A DNA stretch of 13,630 nucleotides from a virus, in the UHGV virus genome UHGV-0353144; one strand, given 5' to 3'. The position numbers were made by a program, and so were the translations under genes. The notes beneath the pieces were generated by a model that ran no database searches, was not told the DNA's origin, and saw only the letters and a list, made by a program, of their open reading frames with translations. This document shows, one piece after another, positions 1 through 13,607 of this stretch (positions are counted from its first letter, which is position 1; each line of letters begins with the position of its first letter).

Positions 1-716
1 GCCCACATCAGTGGCTGACGTCGCGCCCCCATCCCGGTAAGCATCGTGGTGTAAAGCGCATCGGTGGCGTGCTCGTGATATTCATCCACCACCGCACAGT
101 GGGGTGATGAACCATCACCGGGGTTACCGATCAGCGGTTCAAACCGCGCGCCATCCTCCGGACGATTCATGTTTGAGGCGTTAACCTCAATCCCGAACGC
201 TTCCGTCAGCATGGGTGTGCGTTTACACATCAGTCGCGCCGGGCGAAAGACTTCCCATGCCTGTTTCTCCGTCGTGGCACCGGAATACACTTCCGCGCCG
301 AACTCGTTATCACAGGCAAAACAATACAGGGCGACACCGGCAGAGATTGCTGATTTGCCGTTCTTACGGGGGATTTCGGTATACACCTCCCGGAAGCGGC
401 GCAGCCGGGAGCCTTTATTGACCCAGCCAAACGCGCAGCAGATCACAAAGAGCTGCCACGGCTCCAGCGTGATGGGCATCCTCTTGAATGCCCACTCACC
501 CTTGGTGTGCGGCAACAGCTGAATAAATTTGGCGGCCCGTTCAGCCAGGTCCTTGTCGAAGCGGTAACGAAACGACTTACTTTTTTCCGCCATCAGGTCA
601 TCAAGATGGCGCTGGCAGGCCTGAATCACAAACTGGCAGACCACAATCTTTCCGCGCACGACATCCCGGGCATACTGATTGGCAGCATTTACGTTGGGGT
701 AAGATTTCCGGCTCAT
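1..716 (-). CDS. terminase large subunit, N-terminal ~238 codons (gene continues past the window start)
   Basis: Minus-strand frame from ATG at 716 is open to position 1; I checked every codon in that frame by hand and found no stop. Translation begins [29 protein letters not shown] and contains the P-loop-like motif EIPRKNGKS seen in HK97-type large terminases. ATGA overlap with the stop of the upstream small-subunit gene. Absent from the ORF track because it has no stop in the window. Confidence 0.8.
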
Positions 717-1207
717 GATTCGATAATTTTCAGAAACGGGTTAGTGGCTTTCTTCTGCCCCGCCAGGCCAATCAGACGCTGGCGGCTGCTGGGGTCGAGT
801 CCGAGCATTGCCCCCGTGCTGCTCATCTCGGACTCCTGTTCTTTCTTGGCGGTCAGCTCCGGATTTTTGACCATACCGCCCATTGCACCGGTGATGGTGT
901 TGCCCTGGCTGGCAATATTTTTCACGGCACGTCGCCAGAACTCATAGGCTACGCACCACCGCTCAAGCACCGCGAGGTCAGTCACGCACAGCAGGCCCTG
1001 ACCGCAGAGTTCTTTGGTTGTCAGTTGCCACATGATCGTGGCGAGAGGGAGATTTTCTTCTGCGAACCACTCCGGTGGCTCAACGCCTTTGATGGGCGTA
1101 AAAACAGGTTCATCTTTGTTCAGGGCTCGCTTGCCGGGGTTTCCGGCCAGCGCCTTGCGCGCCGTTGGCTTGGGGCGACGCCCGGAACGCCCCGCCGTTC
1201 CAGCCAT
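713..1207 (-). CDS. terminase small subunit (HK97-like packaging module)
   Basis: ORF-track ORF 713..1216 starts at GTG; the ATG at 1207 has a GGAG Shine-Dalgarno about 8 nt upstream. Basic N-terminus [18 protein letters not shown]. Sits between the HNH gene and the large terminase. Confidence 0.7.
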
Positions 1208-1257
1208 ATGCGGCACTCCTGGTTAAATTTCATTTTTCGCGGGTATAAAAAAACGAT

Positions 1258-1332: not shown

Positions 1333-1683
1333 TTACTTCAACCGTTCACGGGCCGTCTTCGCCTTATGACACGGCCAGCACAGACTCTGCAGATTACTGT
1401 CGGCATCAGTGCCGCCATGCGCTTTAGGGATGATGTGGTCAACGGTTTTCGCTTCACGCACCACACCGGCACGCAGGCACAACTGGCACAGTCCTTTGTC
1501 ACGCTTCAACACACGCACGCGGATAACATCCCACTTCGAACCATAACCGCGCTGGTGACGGGACTGACCTGGCTTATATTGCGTCCAGCCTTCGCTTTTG
1601 TGGCTTTCACAATAGCCTGACGGATCTGTGGTGGTATGGCGGCAACCGCGAACACGGCAGGCTTTTGGGATTCGTGGCGGCAT
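1333..1683 (-). CDS. HNH endonuclease (terminase-associated)
   Basis: 116-aa ORF with Cys-rich N-terminus (CRVRGCRHTT...YCESH) and the HNH core DHIIPKAHGGTDADSNLQSLCWPCH. Lies immediately upstream of the terminase genes, as in HK97 gp74. Confidence 0.9.
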   Translation of the reverse strand: MPPRIPKACRVRGCRHTTTDPSGYCESHKSEGWTQYKPGQSRHQRGYGSKWDVIRVRVLKRDKGLCQLCLRAGVVREAKTVDHIIPKAHGGTDADSNLQSLCWPCHKAKTARERLK

Positions 1684-4689: not shown

Positions 4690-4719
4690 ATTATGGCTAA
4701 ATGGCTAATTGCATGTCAA
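4690..4719 (-). promoter_or_regulatory. late promoter PR' (sigma70) overlapping the 3' end of the Q-like gene; presumed qut region
   Basis: Minus strand: TTGACA (4714-4719), 18-bp spacer, CATAAT (4690-4695). The -35 lies in the last codons of the Q-like ORF and the Q stop TAG sits in the spacer. Predicted start is ~45 nt upstream of the tR'-like T-run. Confidence 0.55.
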
Positions 4720-5215
4720 GGTTTTTAACAGCAACATGCTTAACTTTCTCAACACGTTTACGCATTTTGAAAGCATTTTGCATTGGTTGGTACAAAACAA
4801 ATAATGACGCTTTCAGGATGTCGTCAATTTCATTTCTACAGGTTGCCAGTGAAGGTTTTCTCCATCCCTCGCCACCACGTCCACACATCTTGCGTGGCTT
4901 TGCAGTCGCGTGATAGTAGGATGCAATTGCTCGCTTAGATGAACCATGAGCGTAGTAGCTGAGGAGGATGCCAAAGGCTTTCTTGTCAATGTACATGACG
5001 GAATCGACGACCTGAGAAATCAACATTCCATCATCATCATTGCACATTGGCCTTGTCATAACTCTTCCCGGCTCTACGCTCTCCATGAACTTCGCTATTA
5101 CGCTGCTCATGCGCTTTTCCAGACGACCTGAATAAACCCATGCGCCCCACAGTTCAAGCCAGCCATTCAGCCACTCGTGCTGCTCTTTGGTGAGGTTTAG
5201 TTCTCTTATGCCCAT
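4697..5215 (-). CDS. putative late-gene antiterminator (Q-like, not the lambda Q type)
   Basis: 172-aa ORF occupying the Q position: overlaps the ninI stop at its 5' end and carries the PR' -35 at its 3' end. Sequence is unlike lambda Q as I recall it, so the call is positional only. Confidence 0.5.
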
Positions 5216-5877
5216 GCGCCTTCTCCCTGTACCTGAATCAATGTGAGATTTCCGCAGAACACTGCGCCGGTATCGATATACATCTGGTTGGCAAATTTGA
5301 GTGGTTTCACTGCTGGCGTATGACCAAAGATGAACGTGTCCGCGCCTTTGATTTCTTTCACGATCCCGTCTTGTGAGTTGCTGATTCGTTCGCGGTTCCA
5401 GATTACCTGCTGATGATCAACTGGCTTTCCGAACTCGTATTCATCACAAGGATAATCGGCGTGGCAGATGATATATTTTTTATCTTTGCTCACCAGTTCG
5501 ATGATTAACGGAAGTTCATCTGCTTTATGGGCAAGAGCTTTAGCCAGAATTTCTTTGTCGTAATCGAGATTAAAGAACCAGCCACCGCCATTAAGCAGCC
5601 AGTGATTGACGTTTCCACGCTCTGATAAGCCATCAATCATCATTTGCTCATGGTTTCCACGTACAGCTATGAACCAGGGGAATGTGATTAATTCCAGGCA
5701 TTCAACGTTCTCTGTACCGCGATCGACCAAATCGCCAACCGAGATAAGCAGGTCTTTTTTGGTGTCGAATCCTATCGTCTCCAGTTTTTTCATCAGGTTC
5801 GTGTAGCATCCGTGCAGATCGCCAACTACCCAAATATTTCGGTATTTGCTGCCATCAATTTTTTCGTAATAGCGCAT
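5206..5877 (-). CDS. ninI: Ser/Thr protein phosphatase (lambda NinI / PP-lambda type)
   Basis: ORF 5206..5952; ATG at 5877 with GGAG SD gives [29 protein letters not shown]...GNHE, the calcineurin-like metallophosphatase motifs. Near-identical to lambda NinI by recall. Confidence 0.95.
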
Positions 5878-6061
5878 CTCTTTCACTCCATCCGCGATGA
5901 ACCATGAGAACGTCGTTGACGATGGCGTGCATTTTCCCGTCTTTATCATCAACGTATTTTCTGACCGTACCGCGACTACATTTCAGTCTGCGTGCCACTT
6001 CTGTCTGGTTTCCGTATGCTTCAACGAGCATGTCTGGAATGGTTTTTACTGAGAACGTCAT
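5855..6061 (-). CDS. ninH: NinH
   Basis: ATG at 6061 gives [68 protein letters not shown] (68 aa), matching lambda NinH by recall. ATGA overlap with the rusA stop; 23-nt overlap with ninI as in lambda. Confidence 0.85.
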
Positions 6062-6453
6062 GCGGCCTCCAGTAGCTCTGTAATCATTGGCAAACTCCCG
6101 CATGTTTCAGTCACAACCAACACAAGCATTCCACCTTTAATCGCCTGATAGCGCTTGATGCGCATATCGTCTATCTGACCGTCATCCAGCCAGAAGCCCG
6201 CACTGGTGAGTGCGTCAAAAACGGCTTTGGGCAGATTGTCCAAATCTCGTTTGCGGTTATCGGGAGGTGCTGCGTGGATGGTTATTCTGATGCGAGGTGT
6301 GATTTTGATGTCTAGCTGTTGTTGCTGGATTATTTCGATTACTTCTTTTCGGTATCTCTCCCCCCAGTCGCTGATGTAGTGGATCCCTCTTGAGTGTCGC
6401 CAATATCGGTTGTTTGAAGGAGGCCACGGCAATTTTATTCGGTAGGTTTTCAT
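6058..6453 (-). CDS. rusA: RusA-type Holliday junction resolvase
   Basis: 131-aa product MKTYRIKLPWPPSNNRYWRHSRG...RDLDNLPKAVFDALTSAGFWLDDGQI matches the RusA family signature by recall. Confidence 0.85.
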   Translation of the reverse strand: MKTYRIKLPWPPSNNRYWRHSRGIHYISDWGERYRKEVIEIIQQQQLDIKITPRIRITIHAAPPDNRKRDLDNLPKAVFDALTSAGFWLDDGQIDDMRIKRYQAIKGGMLVLVVTETCGSLPMITELLEAA

Positions 6454-6740
6454 GACTTAATCTTCCCCTCCTTCAGCAGTATCGCCTGCGTCCTGATCAC
6501 GCCTTCGAGGTGGTAAAGTCTGGCGTCTTTGTTGTCGAGGTTATGGGTGCGTCGGTCGATTTCATCGTGACACGCGCTACAAGCCCATGCGCCGATCAGG
6601 TCGTCAGGCTTCATTCCCGTTCCGCAAATTCCAGCCATCCGGTAATGTGCCAGAACTGTAGTTTCAGGGTTGCCATTGCATACGCCGTAAATACGTACCT
6701 GGCATTCTCTGCCGCGTGCTTCTTTGCGTAGGTTAGCCAT
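6450..6740 (-). CDS. YbcO-like protein (DUF1364 family, putative nuclease)
   Basis: 96-aa product with RGRECQVRIYGVCNGNPETTVLAH and CSACHDEIDRRTH motifs; resembles E. coli DLP12 YbcO from memory. Adjacent to rusA as in DLP12/82-type nin regions. Confidence 0.6.
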   Translation of the reverse strand: MANLRKEARGRECQVRIYGVCNGNPETTVLAHYRMAGICGTGMKPDDLIGAWACSACHDEIDRRTHNLDNKDARLYHLEGVIRTQAILLKEGKIKS

Positions 6741-7462
6741 TAAGCAGCCTCCCCGGTTACTTTCAGCATTCCGTTATCGAGCAGCTTTCTGGTCAGCCAC
6801 TGTTGACCACGCCCGGTGATTTTTGTGGTGAACGATATCTGTATTCCGTGATTTGTGTTGACCGCTGTTTCTTTCACTGTGAAATAGCCGCGATCCATAT
6901 ATTCCTGCATTGGCACATTGCGCCGGGAACCTGAAGCAATAAGGATTTTGTGATCGCGCATCCACGCAAACAGTTTGTTTGGACCAATTCCAACAACCTT
7001 TGCAAAGTTTCCAATCAAAATTCCGCTGGCCTCGCCAACGCGATCGGCAAACTCAACTTTAGGTGCGGCAATTGCGAACTGGTTTTCCAGTTGCATTTTC
7101 TGCTCAGCAAGATCAGCAGCAAGGCGCAACGCTTCTGGTAGCGTTTTGGGGATATTAACCGCAGCTTCTTCAAGATCTCGCCAGCGGTCAACAAGGCGAG
7201 CGGTGAACTCTGGCGACAACTGGGCAACAACAACAATACTATCTCGCTTACCTTGTTCGCCTTCGAAGACGTAAGCCTCGACACTACGTCGCAGTCCTAA
7301 GTTATTGATTTTTTCGAAAACCTGCAATGCAGGAAGTTGAATAACTCCAGATTTAGCCAGGCGCTCTATTGATATTTTTACGTTATCTGGACGACTTCCC
7401 ACCAAATCAGCGATTTCAATGCTTGTCATTTTGATGGCATTGCCATTTATTAACTCATTCAT
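6740..7462 (-). CDS. phage antirepressor-like regulatory protein (Rha-type N-terminal domain + ANT/KilAC C-terminal domain)
   Basis: 240-aa ORF. N-terminus TSIEIADLVGSRPDNVKISIERL resembles the Rha family; C-terminal half (AIAAPKVEFADRV...FAWMRDHKILI...GRGQQWL) resembles the ANT antirepressor domain. Both by recall. Confidence 0.65.
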   Translation of the reverse strand: MNELINGNAIKMTSIEIADLVGSRPDNVKISIERLAKSGVIQLPALQVFEKINNLGLRRSVEAYVFEGEQGKRDSIVVVAQLSPEFTARLVDRWRDLEEAAVNIPKTLPEALRLAADLAEQKMQLENQFAIAAPKVEFADRVGEASGILIGNFAKVVGIGPNKLFAWMRDHKILIASGSRRNVPMQEYMDRGYFTVKETAVNTNHGIQISFTTKITGRGQQWLTRKLLDNGMLKVTGEAA

Positions 7463-7625
7463 CGTCTTCTTCCTCGTACATTGAGCTATTCGGATCGCTC
7501 ATCAGTTCTGCGCAGCAGTGCTCACACACGTGAACTTCCAGCACATGCAGCTTCTGACCGCAGTTAGCGCACGTTAAAGCTCGCTCGACACTTCCTTGTT
7601 CGTAACTTCGATTTTGGTCAATCAC
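7455..7625 (-). CDS. ninF: NinF
   Basis: 56-codon ORF not in the track (below its size cut-off), read by hand: (GTG)[55 protein letters not shown], matching lambda NinF by recall. GTG start overlaps the ninE stop (GTGA). Confidence 0.7.
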
Positions 7626-7804
7626 CTTGTTTTCCTCGCACGTTCTCTAAGCCACCGGATATCCCACAGGTGAGCCGTGTAGTTGAAGGTTTTTACGTCA
7701 GATTCTTTTGGGATTGGCTTGCGTTTATTTCTGGAGCGCTTCGTTGGAAGGTATTTGCAGTTTTCGCAGATTATGTCGGTGATACTTCGTCGCTGTCGTC
7801 TCAT
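7622..7804 (-). CDS. ninE: NinE
   Basis: ATG at 7804 (ATGA overlap with ninB stop) gives [60 protein letters not shown], matching lambda/DLP12 NinE by recall. The longer ORF-track start at 7864 is probably an upstream extension. Confidence 0.8.
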
Positions 7805-8244
7805 GCCGCCCTGTCTCCCCATCGCGCTTTCCATTCGAGAGCCAGTCTCGCTTCGTCTGACCACTTAACGCCACGCTCTGTACCGAATGCCTGTATAAGC
7901 TCTAATAGCTCCGCAAATTCGCTTACACGCATCCTGCTGGTTGACTGGCCTATTACCACAAAGCCATTCCCGGCAAGGTTAGGAACAACGTCCTGCTGCT
8001 TTAATGCTGCTGTAAAAACGCACTTCCAGCTTTCTGCATCCAGCCAGCGACCATGCCATTCAACCTGACGAGAGACGTCACCAAGGCAAGCCCAAAGCTT
8101 TCGATTCTGGTCTAAGCTGCGGTTGCGTTCCTGAATGGTTACTACGATTGGTTTGGTTGGGTCTGGAAGGATTTGCTGGATAGCTTGAATGGCGTTCTGC
8201 TGATGGATGGTGCTTCTTAGTTCAAACGTTAGTTTCCTCACCAT
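7801..8244 (-). CDS. ninB: NinB (Orf-family recombination mediator)
   Basis: 147-aa product [68 protein letters not shown]... is near-identical to lambda NinB by recall. Confidence 0.9.
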
Positions 8245-8386
8245 TTACGCTCCTGTAATCGTCAAGTGCAGCTGCAATAGTCCCTATCGGGTCATGGTCT
8301 TGCCCGATAATCTCATTTACGTTTTCATCTTCTTCCACACCGAAAAAGAATCGCAGGGCTAACATGATTTCTTCGTATGCGCTCAT
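8222..8386 (-). CDS. hypothetical small protein (54 aa, acidic)
   Basis: Hand-translated: [54 protein letters not shown]. Strong SD GAAGGAG 5 nt upstream of ATG at 8386. Starts 2 nt after the upstream ORF stop; its 3' end overlaps the ninB start. Confidence 0.45.
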   Translation of the reverse strand: MSAYEEIMLALRFFFGVEEDENVNEIIGQDHDPIGTIAAALDDYRSVNGEETNV

Positions 8387-8388
8387 AC

Positions 8389-8628
8389 TCACTCCTTCAC
8401 TTTGACTCCAGCAGCGCGGATGGCGCTCTGCACCTCGCTTACATACAGATATGGGGTTCGCCCACTATGCATGGTAAAGCTTTCAGGAAGCTCAATCTCG
8501 ATAGCTGCTCGCGATGCCTGCCACGCTTGCCAATACATCTCAACCATATTGGCGTATATTTTATTTTTAGGATCACATCCGGTGTAATTTTCAAACCATT
8601 CTTCAAACTGCTTTCTTGATTCGTCCAT
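8389..8628 (-). CDS. hypothetical protein (79 aa from ATG 8628)
   Basis: ORF-track ORF 8389..8652 begins at GTG; the ATG at 8628 has a GGGGA SD and gives MDESRKQFEEWFENYTGCDPKNKIYANMVEMYWQAWQ... No family recognised. Confidence 0.5.
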   Translation of the reverse strand: MDESRKQFEEWFENYTGCDPKNKIYANMVEMYWQAWQASRAAIEIELPESFTMHSGRTPYLYVSEVQSAIRAAGVKVKE

Positions 8629-8629
8629 A

Positions 8630-8845
8630 TCAATCCCCGTTAGTCGTTTCACTCACGAATCTGACAAAACCAGCCATGTTAATTTGCATGAGTTTTTTCA
8701 ACACTTTGTCTCGCCGGCTACGTTTTGGTTTTGGCCTGTGGTTGAATCTTTCACAAACTGGAAGGCTTGACGATTTCCAGTACCTATTACGCCTTGCTCC
8801 ATCTTCCGCCATATCGGCATGAATAAGGTCTGCGAGTGTGCTCAT
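8630..8845 (-). CDS. hypothetical basic protein (71 aa)
   Basis: ATG at 8845 with GGAGAGG SD (track start 8851 is GTG). Product MSTLADLIHADMAEDGARRNRYWKSSSLPVCERFNHRPKPKRSRRDKVLKK... is Arg/Lys-rich. Confidence 0.45.
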   Translation of the reverse strand: MSTLADLIHADMAEDGARRNRYWKSSSLPVCERFNHRPKPKRSRRDKVLKKLMQINMAGFVRFVSETTNGD

Positions 8846-8859
8846 ATTCACCTCTCCAG

Positions 8860-9042
8860 TTACATTGGTTTTGTAATGTTGCTAGTCATCTTACGAATAA
8901 AAAAATGCGTACGTAGCTTTGCTTCCCACATGTAAATCTCCTCAAGGCGAGATAAATCTACGAATACCGGACCTTTGTAATCTGGTCTTGATGCCCTTAT
9001 GTATGAGCTAATAGTTTGTGCATCTTGCTCGTCAAGATTCAT
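8860..9042 (-). CDS. hypothetical protein (60 aa)
   Basis: ATG at 9042 with GAGGG SD; overlaps the upstream 67-aa ORF end by 11 nt. The region is A/T-richer than its neighbours. Confidence 0.4.
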   Translation of the reverse strand: MNLDEQDAQTISSYIRASRPDYKGPVFVDLSRLEEIYMWEAKLRTHFFIRKMTSNITKPM

Positions 9043-9260: not shown

Positions 9261-9289
9261 ATAAAAAAGGGCTACTGTGTAAATAGCCC
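9261..9289 (-). terminator. intrinsic terminator after the helicase gene (tR2-like position)
   Basis: Stem GGGCTA (9269-9274) / TAGCCC (9284-9289) with a 9-nt loop; on the minus-strand RNA it is followed by UUUUUUAU (complement of 9261-9268). About 30 nt downstream of the helicase stop. Confidence 0.55.
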
Positions 9290-9319
9290 CTGTTATTAGC
9301 TCAGTGATGTAGATGGTCA

Positions 9320-10756
9320 TCAGAATCCTCCTTTCTTCTTGGACTGCGGTTCCTCGCGTTCACGGCGGCGCATTTCAGCAGACTGTTGGTCTGTGTCATA
9401 AATAGCGCCATTTGCCTGAATGCAATACACCGTGCCGGTATTGCCATGACGATTGAGACGAAGGATTAGTTCGGTTTCACCAGGTGGAACACTGTCATCA
9501 AAAGCGCCTTCACGATGGATCCCAACCCAATAATCGCAATCCTGTTCAATCTGCCCTGTATCTCGTGAGTCACTTGGTAATGGGCGTTTATTGGTTCGGC
9601 TTTCCAATGCGCGGTTAAGCTGCGTCAGAAGCACAACAACGCAATCAAGCTCTTTGGCAAGGTTCTTCAGTCCTTTGGTGATCATGCCGTAGGCAAGGTC
9701 GTTGCGATCGGCCTTCTCAGCGGTCATTAGTGTCAGGTAATCGACCAGAATCATGCCAACACATCCTTTTTCTCGCTTGATTCGACGGCTTTCGCTGACG
9801 ATTTGAGCCAGAGATAATCCCGGCGTGTCGTCGATGTAAAGCAGGTCGATTTCACTCAAGCGATTGGCTGTTTCGATCGCCCTGTTGAAGTCACCATCGT
9901 AATCACCCTGATAGCCGTCATCAGCGTCATTTGTCGCCGGAAGGTAAAAAATATTCGGGTTAACACCAGACTTCTGCCCTACCAGTTTTTCCAGTATCTG
10001 ATCACGTGGCATTTCAAGGCTGAACATCAGAGCGGGCTTTTTCTCATGCACTGCGCAGTTGATTGCCATCTGGCTGTATAGCGTCGTTTTACCCATCTTA
10101 GGGCGAGCGCCAATGACAAACAGAGAGCCTTTCACCAGACCTTTCGGTGACAGCATCCTGTCCAGCGATGGGATCCCTGTGCTCATTCCCCGTTGTTCGC
10201 CTGACGGGTCAAATCGCTTCTCAAGGTCGCTAACCCAGCCTTCCATGACCTCACCAAATGAGCGAAGGCCGCGACGCGATCCGGTTTTTGCATGGTCTGT
10301 CAGTTGCGTGAAAATCGCCTGAATAGCTTCGTACTTCTGCGTTGCAGTCATTCCATTGCGGGAATAGAGCAATTCCGTCGCTTCAGTCATGCGGTTGATG
10401 GCGTAGCGTTCCATTGCGGTTTCACGAACCTGCATTGCATAGGCAACAATGTTTGCTGCGCTTGGCGTGTTCTTTGCGATCTCAGCGATATAAGCAAAAC
10501 CGCCAACAGACGCCGTTAACGATTTACGCTCCAGTTCATCGAAAAGCGTCAGGCCATCTACTGGCTTTTGCTCCCGGTGCATTCTGGTTATTTCTTCGAA
10601 AAGGATTTTGTGTGGTCGGCAGTAAAATGAATCAGGCTTCAGCATCGCCAGAACTTTCTGGACGCGCTCACTGCTGTCATCATCCAGAAGCAATCCACCA
10701 ATCACCGCCTGCTCTGCCTCGATGCTATGGGGCGGCGCATAAAAATTATCGGTCAT
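9320..10756 (-). CDS. replicative DNA helicase (DnaB family, P22 gp12-like)
   Basis: ORF 9320..10771 begins at GTG; ATG at 10756 has a GAGGG SD. Walker A GARPKMGKTT and a DnaB-like N-terminal domain (IEAEQAVIGGLLLD). Start overlaps the O-like gene end by 11 nt. Confidence 0.9.
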   Translation of the reverse strand: MTDNFYAPPHSIEAEQAVIGGLLLDDDSSERVQKVLAMLKPDSFYCRPHKILFEEITRMHREQKPVDGLTLFDELERKSLTASVGGFAYIAEIAKNTPSAANIVAYAMQVRETAMERYAINRMTEATELLYSRNGMTATQKYEAIQAIFTQLTDHAKTGSRRGLRSFGEVMEGWVSDLEKRFDPSGEQRGMSTGIPSLDRMLSPKGLVKGSLFVIGARPKMGKTTLYSQMAINCAVHEKKPALMFSLEMPRDQILEKLVGQKSGVNPNIFYLPATNDADDGYQGDYDGDFNRAIETANRLSEIDLLYIDDTPGLSLAQIVSESRRIKREKGCVGMILVDYLTLMTAEKADRNDLAYGMITKGLKNLAKELDCVVVLLTQLNRALESRTNKRPLPSDSRDTGQIEQDCDYWVGIHREGAFDDSVPPGETELILRLNRHGNTGTVYCIQANGAIYDTDQQSAEMRRREREEPQSKKKGGF

Positions 10757-11645
10757 CGTGTTCACCCTCACGAACTTTCAGGTAGGTATTATCGTTAAGC
10801 AGGAAATCAAATCCCTTTTTGTGCCAGACGGTTCCGCGCTGATGGTTTGGGCGCTCTTCGAACATCCATCGGCAATTTTCGCCTACGTAGCTCAAATAAT
10901 TTCTCCAGTCCTGCATCGTGAACCCATGCCCGTCGAGCTGGCGGGTTATCACTCCGGCTTTGCGCCAGAACGTTCGGATCTGGTTTTTACGCTTGTCATT
11001 CAGTGCGCGGATTCTTGGCGCTTCAGGAAGGATTTCGTGGTAAGCATCGACAACATCCTGACAGCTAACGGAAGGTTTTTTCTTGTCAGACTTTTTGTCT
11101 GCTGTGGCACTCTCTAATACGTCAGTATTAGAGATAATATTATTATATTCTTTATCTGTGGTAATTTGCTGGTAATCTGCTGGTACAGTATTGCTTACAG
11201 GCATTGGTATTTCTGGCTTTGAGGTGGTAATTTGCTGGTAATCTGCTGGTACAAAATTTGACTGATAATCGTCATATTTCTCTACCGAGAAAACTGAGAA
11301 TTTACCGTGTGAAACCCAGTCAATCATGCCGAGTTTTTTGAACTTTCTAAGCAGGTACTGAACGCGATCTGGTTTGAGTCCTGTTTCAAACGCCAGAGAG
11401 TTTCTACCGCCAAGTAGCTTCCCTCTGCCTACCAGAATTTCTCCTGCGTCAGTCATTACATACTCAGGCGTATGCTTTGCTTTGAGGATTAAGTGAACCC
11501 ACAGATGCGCAGCTTCTGCGTCCTTGTAAAACGGCACATCCATAATTTTACGGTGCAGCAAGGCATACCCCTTACCGCTGCTTTGATGCGGTTGTTGTAG
11601 CCTTCTGGCCTCTCTGGCTTCGGCTAGATTAGATATGTTACTCAT
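10746..11645 (-). CDS. replication initiator (O-like / P22 gp18-like) containing the origin iterons
   Basis: 299-aa ORF with AAGGAG SD. Sits upstream of the DnaB helicase and contains direct repeats plus an A/T-rich tract in its coding sequence, which show up as the duplicated peptide [10 protein letters not shown]-terminal HTH-like segment. Confidence 0.75.
11131..11253. repeat. replication origin: A/T-rich tract plus two perfect 30-bp direct repeats built from 11-bp GGTAATnTGCT units
   Basis: GTGGTAATTTGCTGGTAATCTGCTGGTACA occurs at 11158-11187 and again at 11224-11253 (perfect copies, 36-bp spacer). Each copy holds tandem 11-bp sub-repeats. A/T-rich tract at 11131-11156. All inside the O-like ORF, as for lambda ori. 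Confidence 0.7.
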
Positions 11646-11784
11646 GACCTTTCTCCTTCTGCATCAGCTTCACTTTTTCCAACTCAGCCCGGAATCGACC
11701 AGGCTGCTTGAAGCTGGACAGGAAGCGATCACGTAGTATGTTTTTGTGCATTTTGTCCTGGTAAGGACTGAGTGGTTTTGTCAT
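11638..11784 (-). CDS. hypothetical small protein (48 aa)
   Basis: Hand-translated: [48 protein letters not shown]. Strong SD GAGGAGG 4-5 nt upstream of ATG at 11784. TAATG stop-start overlap with the 134-aa ORF; its stop overlaps the O-like start. Below the ORF-track size cut-off. Confidence 0.4.
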
Positions 11785-12188
11785 TAAGCCTCCTCTACTT
11801 CGTAATCAGCGAAGTAACCAGTAGACATTTTTAAAAACCTTGATTCGGTGACTGTGTAAGCCTTCCTTCCTTTCCTCTCCTTGCCTTCAGGCTCTATGAG
11901 GTGGCACGAATAAATGATTCTGCGCTGCCAGTTGCCTGGCATTTCCACCACTGCCAGAACCTCAAGAATTCTCTTTCCTTCAGCATCAGCGGTGTAAAAA
12001 CACTGATCACCATAACCACAATCGGCTGGCTCATAATTTTTGTGACAACCGCCAATCCAGCGCTCATCGGTATGCACGTTGCCGTCATAAGACTGATAAT
12101 CTGTGCATACGAAGATAAATGGATATACGGTTTCGAACTTGTCACCGGCCTTTATGCCGGTGTTTACTTGCTTGGTTTGTCCTGGCAT
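11784..12188 (-). CDS. hypothetical Cys/His-rich protein (134 aa) inserted between cII and the O-like gene
   Basis: ORF-track ORF 11784..12395 (203 aa) would overlap cII by ~170 nt. ATG at 12188 has an AGGAG SD (ACAGGAGTAATT-ATG) 34 nt after the cII stop. Product [65 protein letters not shown]... has 5 Cys and 3 His. No family recognised. Confidence 0.6.
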
Positions 12189-12222
12189 AATTACTCCTGT
12201 TACTTGGCGTAACACAGTGTGC

Positions 12223-12501
12223 TTAAGCGTCCAGACTGCTACCAACAGCTGGGCGTTTTTCTTTTGTGAGAATCGATGCCACCTGCTGAGCAAGTCTCGC
12301 CATCTCATCATCAACAACTCCCCATTCAAGAACAGCCAGAAGCATGGCCATCTTTGGGATAAAGCTGTCTTTCCATCGCGAAATTTGCGATTCATTAATC
12401 CCTAACGCGTCGGCAACCTTTCGCTGACCACGTACAGCAATTCGATTCAGGATGTTGCTTGTAATTGCATTCGCTTTCTTGCGAGTACTTGTAAGTTGCA
12501 T
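12223..12501 (-). CDS. cII: CII-like transcriptional activator
   Basis: ATG at 12501 with AAGGAA SD gives MQLTSTRKKANAITSNILNRIAVRGQRKVADALGINESQISRWKDSFIPKMAMLLAVLEWGVVDDEMARLAQQVASILT, homologous to lambda CII (shared ...SQISRWK...PK...MLLAVLEWGVVDD...MARLA.QVA.ILT) by recall. Confidence 0.85.
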   Translation of the reverse strand: MQLTSTRKKANAITSNILNRIAVRGQRKVADALGINESQISRWKDSFIPKMAMLLAVLEWGVVDDEMARLAQQVASILTKEKRPAVGSSLDA

Positions 12502-12580
12502 ATGTAAGTATTTCCTTAGATAACAATTGATTGAATGTATGCAAATAAATGCATACACCATAGGTGTGGTTTAATTTGAT
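12502..12580 (-). terminator. tR1 region (Rho-dependent in lambda) between nutR and cII
   Basis: The minus-strand sequence ...CATCAAATTAAACCACACCTATGGTGTATGCATTTATTTGCATACATTCAATCAATTGTTATCTAAGGAAATACTTACAT-ATG matches the lambda nutR-tR1-cII leader as I recall it. Rho-dependent sites cannot be confirmed from sequence alone. Confidence 0.45.
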
Positions 12581-12836: not shown

Positions 12837-12947
12837 ATGCCCTCCATAGTAACCATGAAACAATAATACGATATGTACTTTTAGAATGCAAACAAAAAAT
12901 ACATCTTGTGCATGGATGGTTTTAGTACAGAGCGTAATAATAAGGGT
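12837..12947. promoter_or_regulatory. immunity control region (OR) with divergent PR (toward cro) and PRM-like (toward cI) promoters
   Basis: Minus-strand PR candidate: TTGCAT (12886-12891), 17-bp spacer, TATTAT (12863-12868). Plus-strand TAATAAT (12935-12941) sits just before the cI ATG, a PRM-like near-leaderless arrangement. The motif TACGnnnTGTAC occurs at 12867-12878 and inverted at 12925-12936; a related copy lies at 12900-12912. Operator boundaries are not resolved. Confidence 0.55.
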
Positions 12948-13607
12948 ATGAAAATGAAATGGTATGAACTGGCTAGATCCAGAATGAAAGAGCTCGGCAT
13001 AACTCAAGAGAAGTTAGCTGAAGAGCTTGGTATGACGCAGGGTGGAATTGGTCACTGGTTGCGCGGATCTCGTCATCCATCTCTTGACGAGATTGGTGTG
13101 GTGTTTAAATACCTTGGTATTGATAACGTCTCATTCAACCACGACGGTACATTTTCACCTGTTGGCGAATACTCATCTGCCCCCGTTAAAAAACAATATG
13201 AGTACCCTGTTTTTTCTCATGTTCAGGCCGGGATGTTCTCGCCTGAGCTTAGAACCTTTACCAAAGGTGATGCGGAGAGATGGGTCAGCACAACCAAAAA
13301 AGCCAGTGATTGTGCGTTCTGGCTTGAAGTTGAAGGTAATTCCATGACCGCGCCAACAGGATCCAAGCCAAGCTTTCCTGACGGGATGTTAATTCTCGTT
13401 GACCCTGAGCAGGCTGTTGAGCCAGGTGATTTCTGCATAGCCAGACTTGGTGGTGACGAGTTTACCTTCAAGAAACTGATCAGGGATAGCGGTCAGGTGT
13501 TCCTACAGCCACTAAACCCGCAATATCCAATGATTCCATGCAATGATAGCTGTTCCGTAGTAGGGAAAGTTATCGCCAGCCAGTGGCCTGAAGAGACATT
13601 TAGTTAA
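12948..13607 (+). CDS. cI: CI repressor (non-lambda N-terminal HTH domain, lambda-type C-terminal S24 autocleavage domain)
   Basis: ORF 12906..13607; ATG at 12948 ([40 protein letters not shown]...). From [31 protein letters not shown] through [24 protein letters not shown] to the C-terminus it matches lambda cI by recall; the N-terminal ~90 aa do not. Confidence 0.9.

Follow-up and report, generated by a model that had tools for sequence, protein, structure and literature searches.

What does the gene lying between ninF and a ybcO-rusA pair in this lambdoid prophage encode, and how is it related to the ninG gene that lambda carries in the same region? The window analysed here, that is, the whole 13,630-nt stretch of UHGV virus genome UHGV-0353144, had received an initial annotation from its letters alone, which proposed a 240-aa antirepressor with a Rha-like N-terminal and an ANT-like C-terminal domain, standing in place of ninG. 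The open reading frame itself is real: in the list of ORFs with translations it runs from ATG to TAA at exactly 6740-7462 (240 aa, stop codon included). It lies on the minus strand, a point absent from the initial annotation.

The product aligned by BLASTP over its full length with Roi of phage HK022 (AF069308, HK022_65), a protein of the same size, with 215 of 241 positions identical (89%, E=9e-160). When 50,697 phage records were searched by tblastn, the annotated roi genes of HK620, HK140 and many Stx phages were 90-92% identical to it, and copies with 89-92% identity were present in HK140, N7, HK620, HK633, HK75, CUS-3, HK022 and dozens of Stx1- and Stx2-converting phages. The records call these genes roi or "DNA-binding protein Roi", or carry the RefSeq propagated name "anti-repressor Ant", which is also the label of the family in PHROG 63. 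Judged by its sequence, the gene at 6740-7462 is the roi of an HK022/HK620-type lambdoid prophage, and is as such already known. DNA similar to some part of 5000-9000, the 4 kb that include roi, occurs in 2,361 of 5,426 complete E. coli genomes (~44%). With the Roi protein as query, NCBIfam assigned no family and a PDB sequence search found no relatives, while PADLOC gave no defence-system match for Roi or YbcO. One further copy, 98% identical to the E. coli-type allele of the window, sits on a 3.9-kb contig of a "Bacillota bacterium" MAG (JAEZCC010000011.1); this contig almost certainly comes from an enterobacterial prophage and was mis-binned.

The first description of Roi came from HK022 (Clerget & Boccard 1996, J Bacteriol 178:4077), and later papers citing this study (PMC3430580, PMC4587872) present it as a DNA-binding protein linked to lytic growth and to dependence on IHF. 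For prophage Gally it is listed as a transcriptional regulator (PMC9928086), and IS629 insertions in the roi of Stx phages have been proposed to affect toxin production (PMC4587872). Almost 30 years after its description its role in lytic development is poorly understood, although the gene is present in many Stx-converting phages.

The domain composition proposed initially stood up well for the C-terminal half and less directly for the N-terminal half. Pfam placed ANT/KilAC (PF03374) at residues 126-228 (6779-7087, minus strand) with 111.5 bits against a cutoff of 25.3 (E=3.1e-32), whereas Phage_pRha (PF09669) matched residues 12-99 with only 17.1 bits, below its cutoff of 29.9 (E=0.0086). Close alleles scored higher for the latter, with 36.7 bits for Roi of Stx2a_F723 (90% identical overall) and 25.2 bits for HK022 Roi. 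A search of 1.84 billion cluster representatives returned 6,377 related clusters, with E<=1e-30 for 162, and among 64 diverse full-length homologs with 34-56% identity ANT was matched by all 64 and Phage_pRha by 60 (best E=8.8e-18). Since alleles that are about 90% identical reach 36.7 bits and 60 of the 64 homologs match, the N-terminal domain of the window protein is homologous to the Rha family, of which this allele is, by sequence comparison, a divergent member.

Pfam, the homologs and an AF2 model together delimit this Rha-family winged-helix domain to residues ~10-101 (7160-7435, minus strand), modelled with a pLDDT of 90.8 as beta-alpha-alpha-beta-beta followed by two helices. In the same model a long linker helix (107-143 in model numbering) spans residues ~108-144 (7031-7141, minus strand) and leads into the KilAC domain, whose fold is a MerR/excisionase-like winged helix resembling DNA-binding winged helices. 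Roi is not the only gene of this kind in the window. Just downstream of the holin-endolysin-Rz lysis cassette, where rha is found in P22 and phi80, a minus-strand gene at 2291-2824 has a product of 177 aa that combines a KilA-N domain (58 bits) with an ORF11CD3 domain (50 bits); it matched PHROG 518, "Rha-like transcriptional regulator", and weakly PADLOC PDC-S22 (E=7e-9). Its domains indicate that, besides Roi, the prophage encodes another regulator from the domain-shuffled KilA/Bro/Rha group.

The neighbours agree with the initial annotation. Strong Pfam matches on the minus strand identified NinB, NinE and NinF upstream of roi, and YbcO, RusA and NinH downstream, where genes for a NinI-type phosphatase and for a Q antiterminator follow on that strand. 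The roi ATG overlaps the stop of ninF (7455-7625) by 8 nt (GATGAATGA), and its TAA shares 1 nt, as TAATG, with the ATG of the ybcO-family putative nuclease gene (6450-6740; 150 bits), which is followed by the gene for the Holliday-junction resolvase RusA (6058-6453; 68 bits) and by ninH (5855-6103). The same order, ninB-ninE-ninF-roi-ybcO (or a homolog)-rusA-ninH-Q, is common to HK022, HK620 and the window, whereas lambda reads ninF-ninG-ninH at this position.

To place this arrangement in context, the genes next to roi were classified in 84 loci. The layout ninF-roi-ybcO-rusA-ninH was found in ~70, and each phage had either ybcO-rusA or ninG, the two never occurring together (0/84), in line with the earlier suggestion that RusA is the alternative to NinG. 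In at least five loci roi lies directly upstream of a true ninG, namely in Stx2a_F723 (NinG, 299 bits in Pfam) and at least four others. Because the layout is standard in HK022 and HK620 and roi also precedes a true ninG, it is ybcO-rusA that replaces ninG and roi is an extra module. The description "in place of lambda ninG" was thus right in that lambda has ninG at this position, but imprecise as to which gene replaces it; the comparison of loci identifies roi as an independent add-on between ninF and the slot filled by ninG or ybcO-rusA.

Further downstream the window differs from HK022 in having a NinI-type phosphatase gene and a different type of Q. The phosphatase gene, of the Ser/Thr type, lies between ninH and Q, a place where HK022 and HK620 have no ninI, and ninI occurs in a roi context in only 5 of the 84 loci, the window included. 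Its ORF (5206-5952, minus strand) is listed from a TTG and overlaps ninH by ~100 nt; as profiles match it only from residue ~23-39 onward, translation probably starts further downstream. The Q antiterminator (4697-5215, minus strand) is of the Phage_antitermQ/DUF1133 type and not of the lambda/HK022 type. Behind a ninF-roi-ybcO-rusA-ninH block that is otherwise the same, the surveyed roi loci have either one Q type or the other, which makes a clear mosaic junction.

How the gene is expressed bears on what it can do. No promoter-like site was found upstream of roi, where scan counts were at or below the shuffled expectation. The overlaps with ninF (8 nt) and ybcO (1 nt), together with the lack of a predicted promoter, mark roi as an operon gene, and the suggestion that it could be a regulatory moron was abandoned on these grounds. 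The strongest terminator-like hairpin, a 10-bp stem followed by a T-run at 9267-9291 (minus strand), comes just after the DnaB-like P gene (9320-10771), at the position that tR2 has in the HK620 annotation; all of the nin region, and roi with it, comes after this hairpin. A terminator-like match inside roi itself (7024-7040) was at chance level. The location of roi in the nin operon behind a tR2-like terminator implies that Roi is made only after derepression and antitermination, too late for it to set off induction of the prophage that carries it. In the resident repressor, encoded at 12906-13607 on the plus strand, an HTH_3 domain is combined with Peptidase_S24, and the latter implies induction by RecA-stimulated autocleavage with no need of an antirepressor.

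Upstream of the replication genes one more ORF is listed, at 11784-12395 (minus strand) between cII (12223-12561) and O, whereas in lambdoid phages O usually follows cII directly. It matched only PHROG 30464 (unknown function, residues 70-203) and had no Pfam match; as listed it overlaps cII, so that its actual start is probably an internal one. The roi of prophage Gally is 90.8% identical to that of the window, and in Gally macrophage-specific antisense transcripts run from Q up to roi (PMC9928086). These are compatible with a boundary at roi, and they prove nothing.

We then considered whether Roi is a true antirepressor, its KilAC half inactivating the CI-type repressor of its own or a co-resident prophage much as P1 Ant1/Ant2 act on C1. 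The names given by PHROG and RefSeq speak for this, as does the similarity to P1 Ant1, which P1 annotation places in an Ant1/Ant2 complex with the C1 repressor: the linker helix and KilAC domain, the C-terminal ~140-180 residues to which the BLASTP similarity is confined, are 56% identical over 179 aa. The same module, however, is 51% identical over 198 aa to that of P1 KilA, which is not an antirepressor; KilA kills the host. The domain thus does not specify antirepression and, as it occurs in proteins of different reported activities, the name "antirepressor" does not predict function. What differs between these proteins is the N-terminus, which is AntA in Ant and KilA-N in KilA, neither of them related to the Rha domain of Roi. 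Roi also lacks other marks of known antirepressors. The Pfam search found no AntA (PF08346) or AntB domain of the P1 type, and no P22_AR_N or P22_AR_C domain of the P22 type; Stx phages with roi, Stx2a_F723 among them, have an ORF6N/P22_AR_C antirepressor encoded by another gene in the vicinity. While C4 antisense RNA and icd control P1 ant in immI, roi has no immI-type control and is an unregulated member of the nin operon, expressed once the resident repressor is gone, a repressor whose autocleavage domain would in any case make an antirepressor unnecessary for induction.

To our knowledge antirepressor action has never been demonstrated for roi, and its characterised HK022 ortholog, 89% identical, is a DNA-binding protein with an IHF-dependent phenotype. 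We therefore trace the label to the Pfam name and regard an antirepressor function as very unlikely. "Phage antirepressor KilAC domain-containing protein" is in this case a domain-propagated name and is no evidence that the prophage induces its neighbours; the nearest characterised protein to the window Roi is an IHF-linked DNA-binding regulator.

A different function for the KilAC half is suggested by Listeria phages, where proteins such as phi10403S AriS and A118 gp42 join a swappable N-terminal regulator domain (AntA/AntB, Bro-N or pRha) to a C-terminal KilAC that suppresses the SOS response, in AriS by the KilAC domain alone (Azulay et al. 2022, PMC9043618). By Pfam and its homologs Roi has this pRha-KilAC architecture. 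It could then be a dual regulator, with the Rha domain acting on genes of its own phage and KilAC dampening host SOS, probably through RecA, and so restraining co-resident prophages rather than inducing them. Yet its KilAC is only 32% identical, over 117 aa, to that of gp42, which has the SOS-suppressing activity, and the comparison is with a Gram-positive system; the AriS effect was seen on overexpression, while deletion at the native level left SOS transcription unchanged (PMC9043618). The fold, moreover, resembles DNA-binding winged helices, and for E. coli phages no similar case is known. By this analogy such an activity seems improbable for Roi; it would be compatible with the explanation we prefer, binding of Roi and IHF to DNA, and does not exclude it.

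That explanation starts from the roi gene itself. In 30-nt bins the window allele is identical to the roi of HK022, HK620 and Stx phages at 28-30 of 30 nt, except in a hypervariable block at gene nt ~60-210 (7253-7403, minus strand; residues ~20-70), where only 15-23 of 30 nt agree. The residues concerned form the second helix of the HTH together with the beta-hairpin wing, and among 80 IMG/VR loci at least four allele types exist, with four main ones. HK022 has a different allele here, its DNA for residues ~20-66 (the recognition-type helix and the wing) being ~55-65% identical to ours.

Within the variable block lie two constant elements. The first is an exact match to the IHF core consensus AATCAATAACTTA, WATCAANNNNTTR, at 7298-7310 (minus strand; gene nt 153-165) with an A-tract before the core. 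It is the sole exact match in the 13.6-kb window, where 0.58 were expected, and it occurs at the same gene position in all the roi alleles compared, HK022 included (gene nt 153). The core persists down to 40% protein identity in a subclass of homologs with an I-N-x-L-G insert in the wing, which includes prophages of Acinetobacter, Gilliamella and Shimwellia. In 13 distinct alleles no stretch of invariant nucleotides within residues 12-82 is longer than AATCA, with which the core begins, and the codons of the core are fixed as well: Ile is ATC and Leu is TTR in 13 of 13, as opposed to 37% and 35% elsewhere in the same genes.

The second element is a perfect 13-bp palindrome, CCTGCA-T-TGCAGG, at 7321-7333 (gene nt 130-142), a candidate protein-binding site on the strength of its pairing and covariation. 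It sits 10 bp upstream of the IHF core, at a fixed offset of -23, and HK022 carries a near-identical one. At this offset the 13 alleles have on average 5.46 of 6 complementary pairs, with 3.69 at the next best offset and a background over 160 offsets of 1.52 +/- 0.69. Like the core, the palindrome is kept in alleles down to 40% protein identity while its letters change: at least 12 variants with compensatory changes were found, among them CCTCAAaTTGAGG, CCACCAtTGGTGG, GCTCCAtTGGAGC and CCGCCAaTGGCGt. The third, synonymous base of a Pro codon changes in step with the second position of the fourth codon, a coupling for which protein coding offers no explanation. In 16 distinct alleles 90.6% of cells were paired, compared with 72.4 +/- 2.9% after shuffling (0/500 shuffles), and the covariation score was 0.365 as against 0.099 (0/500). 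Four of the six pairs changed on both sides (59/500 shuffles), with six further pair types (10/500). These last two measures are the most robust to shared ancestry and only moderately significant, and the alleles are related, so that the evidence for the palindrome is good and not conclusive.

Could the palindrome act in RNA, or the region serve as a promoter? The fold of the 81-nt region was no more stable than that of its shuffles (z=-0.21), its minimum-energy structure did not contain the palindrome, and a hairpin with a 1-nt loop is impossible; an RNA hairpin was therefore rejected, and a protein site on duplex DNA appears to be the better reading. An internal promoter was likewise rejected, there being no sigma-70-like site near 7298-7333 and scan counts below the shuffled expectation. 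Elsewhere in the window the palindrome had five matches at <=3 mismatches, with 5.1 expected; without recurrence in the window, no Roi regulon is evident.

It might also be argued that neither element is a binding site and that both follow as by-products from shared ancestry and the conservation of a peptide (P-x-x-x-V ... I-N-x-L-G), or mark a recombination junction of mosaic segments. Both do overlap conserved amino acids in related alleles, column composition by itself gives 72% pairing, and one allele has only 3 of 6 pairs and another 4 of 6. A peptide, however, would not fix the synonymous positions of the Ile and Leu codons or couple the third base of the Pro codon to a second codon position. 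Slid controls fall to 28-45% pairing with almost no covariation, the core forms an island of invariance in a block that is otherwise 60-70% identical, and published work ties Roi to IHF (PMC3430580, PMC4587872). We accordingly give the by-product reading a low probability.

Some alleles show how the two elements behave when the gene changes. In three IMG/VR loci the protein has an N-terminal extension (255-289 aa in all) and the cassette shifts along with it, placing the core at gene nt 168 or 312. In one of these, L200 (the others being L195 and L173), the IHF consensus is lost (ATCAGT) and the palindrome is the weakest among these IMG/VR alleles (4/6), as if the two had decayed jointly. A predicted IHF site is also annotated in P1, inside ant1 near the start of ant2 (18946-18958 of locus L326, P1 record 48945-48957), which makes ant1 another KilAC-domain gene with an intragenic IHF site, in a non-homologous part of the gene.

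The 1996 study reportedly found that Roi binds a site in its own gene, closely linked to an IHF site, and that IHF stabilises this binding; point mutations in roi are said to relieve the IHF dependence of HK022. The palindrome and the IHF core described here fit this account and probably correspond to that site.

Taken with the gene context, these data lead us to a reading that we hold to be reasonably probable, namely that this is the roi of an HK022/HK620-type prophage and that Roi and IHF bind the predicted intragenic site and modulate lytic development. The gene belongs to the delayed-early class and to the rightward nin operon, on the minus strand in this window, where its translation is coupled to that of ninF and ybcO. 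Its product, built of a Rha-family winged helix, a long helix and a KilAC domain with a winged-helix fold, would bind DNA sequence-specifically at the palindrome in its own coding sequence while host IHF would bind the core 10 bp away. Such a complex would stand in the path of PR-initiated transcription toward Q, and could modulate delayed-early read-through or the level of Roi itself, and hence lytic development. This would explain why Roi blocks lytic growth without IHF. That Roi is the protein bound at the palindrome, and what the complex does, we infer from sequence, and a palindrome of 6+1+6 is short for a classical HTH dimer.

The Rha proteins of phi80 and P22 (orf201) offer a parallel. 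The product of rha in these phages blocks lytic growth in IHF-deficient hosts (PMC4936722), a published IHF-mutant phenotype that matches the one announced by the title of the 1996 Roi study. Their N-terminal winged helix (PF09669) is homologous to that of Roi by way of close homologs that link the two, although the window allele falls below the Pfam cutoff. The genes differ in setting and form: classical rha belongs to the late operon, downstream of lysis, and roi to the delayed-early genes of the nin region, with a KilAC C-terminus in its product.

The location of the cassette allows a further step, which we put forward as tentative and somewhat doubtful: the DNA that encodes the wing may double as the Roi operator, and the palindrome-IHF cassette may diversify together with the recognition helix and wing, each allele recognising its own palindrome. 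If this were true, roi would be an immunity-like specificity module in the nin region and an IHF-gated checkpoint on the way to Q. The cassette persists in genes for Rha-KilAC proteins as far apart as those of Escherichia, Acinetobacter and Gilliamella, and the intragenic element gives a concrete, testable handle on the role of Roi; the cassette and its co-diversification with the DNA-binding domain are the only part of this locus that might be worth experiments.

Finally, outside the nin region, an HNH endonuclease gene (1333-1683, minus strand) lies immediately upstream of the gene for the terminase small subunit (713-1216, minus strand), a pairing that is typical of HK97-like cos packaging modules.
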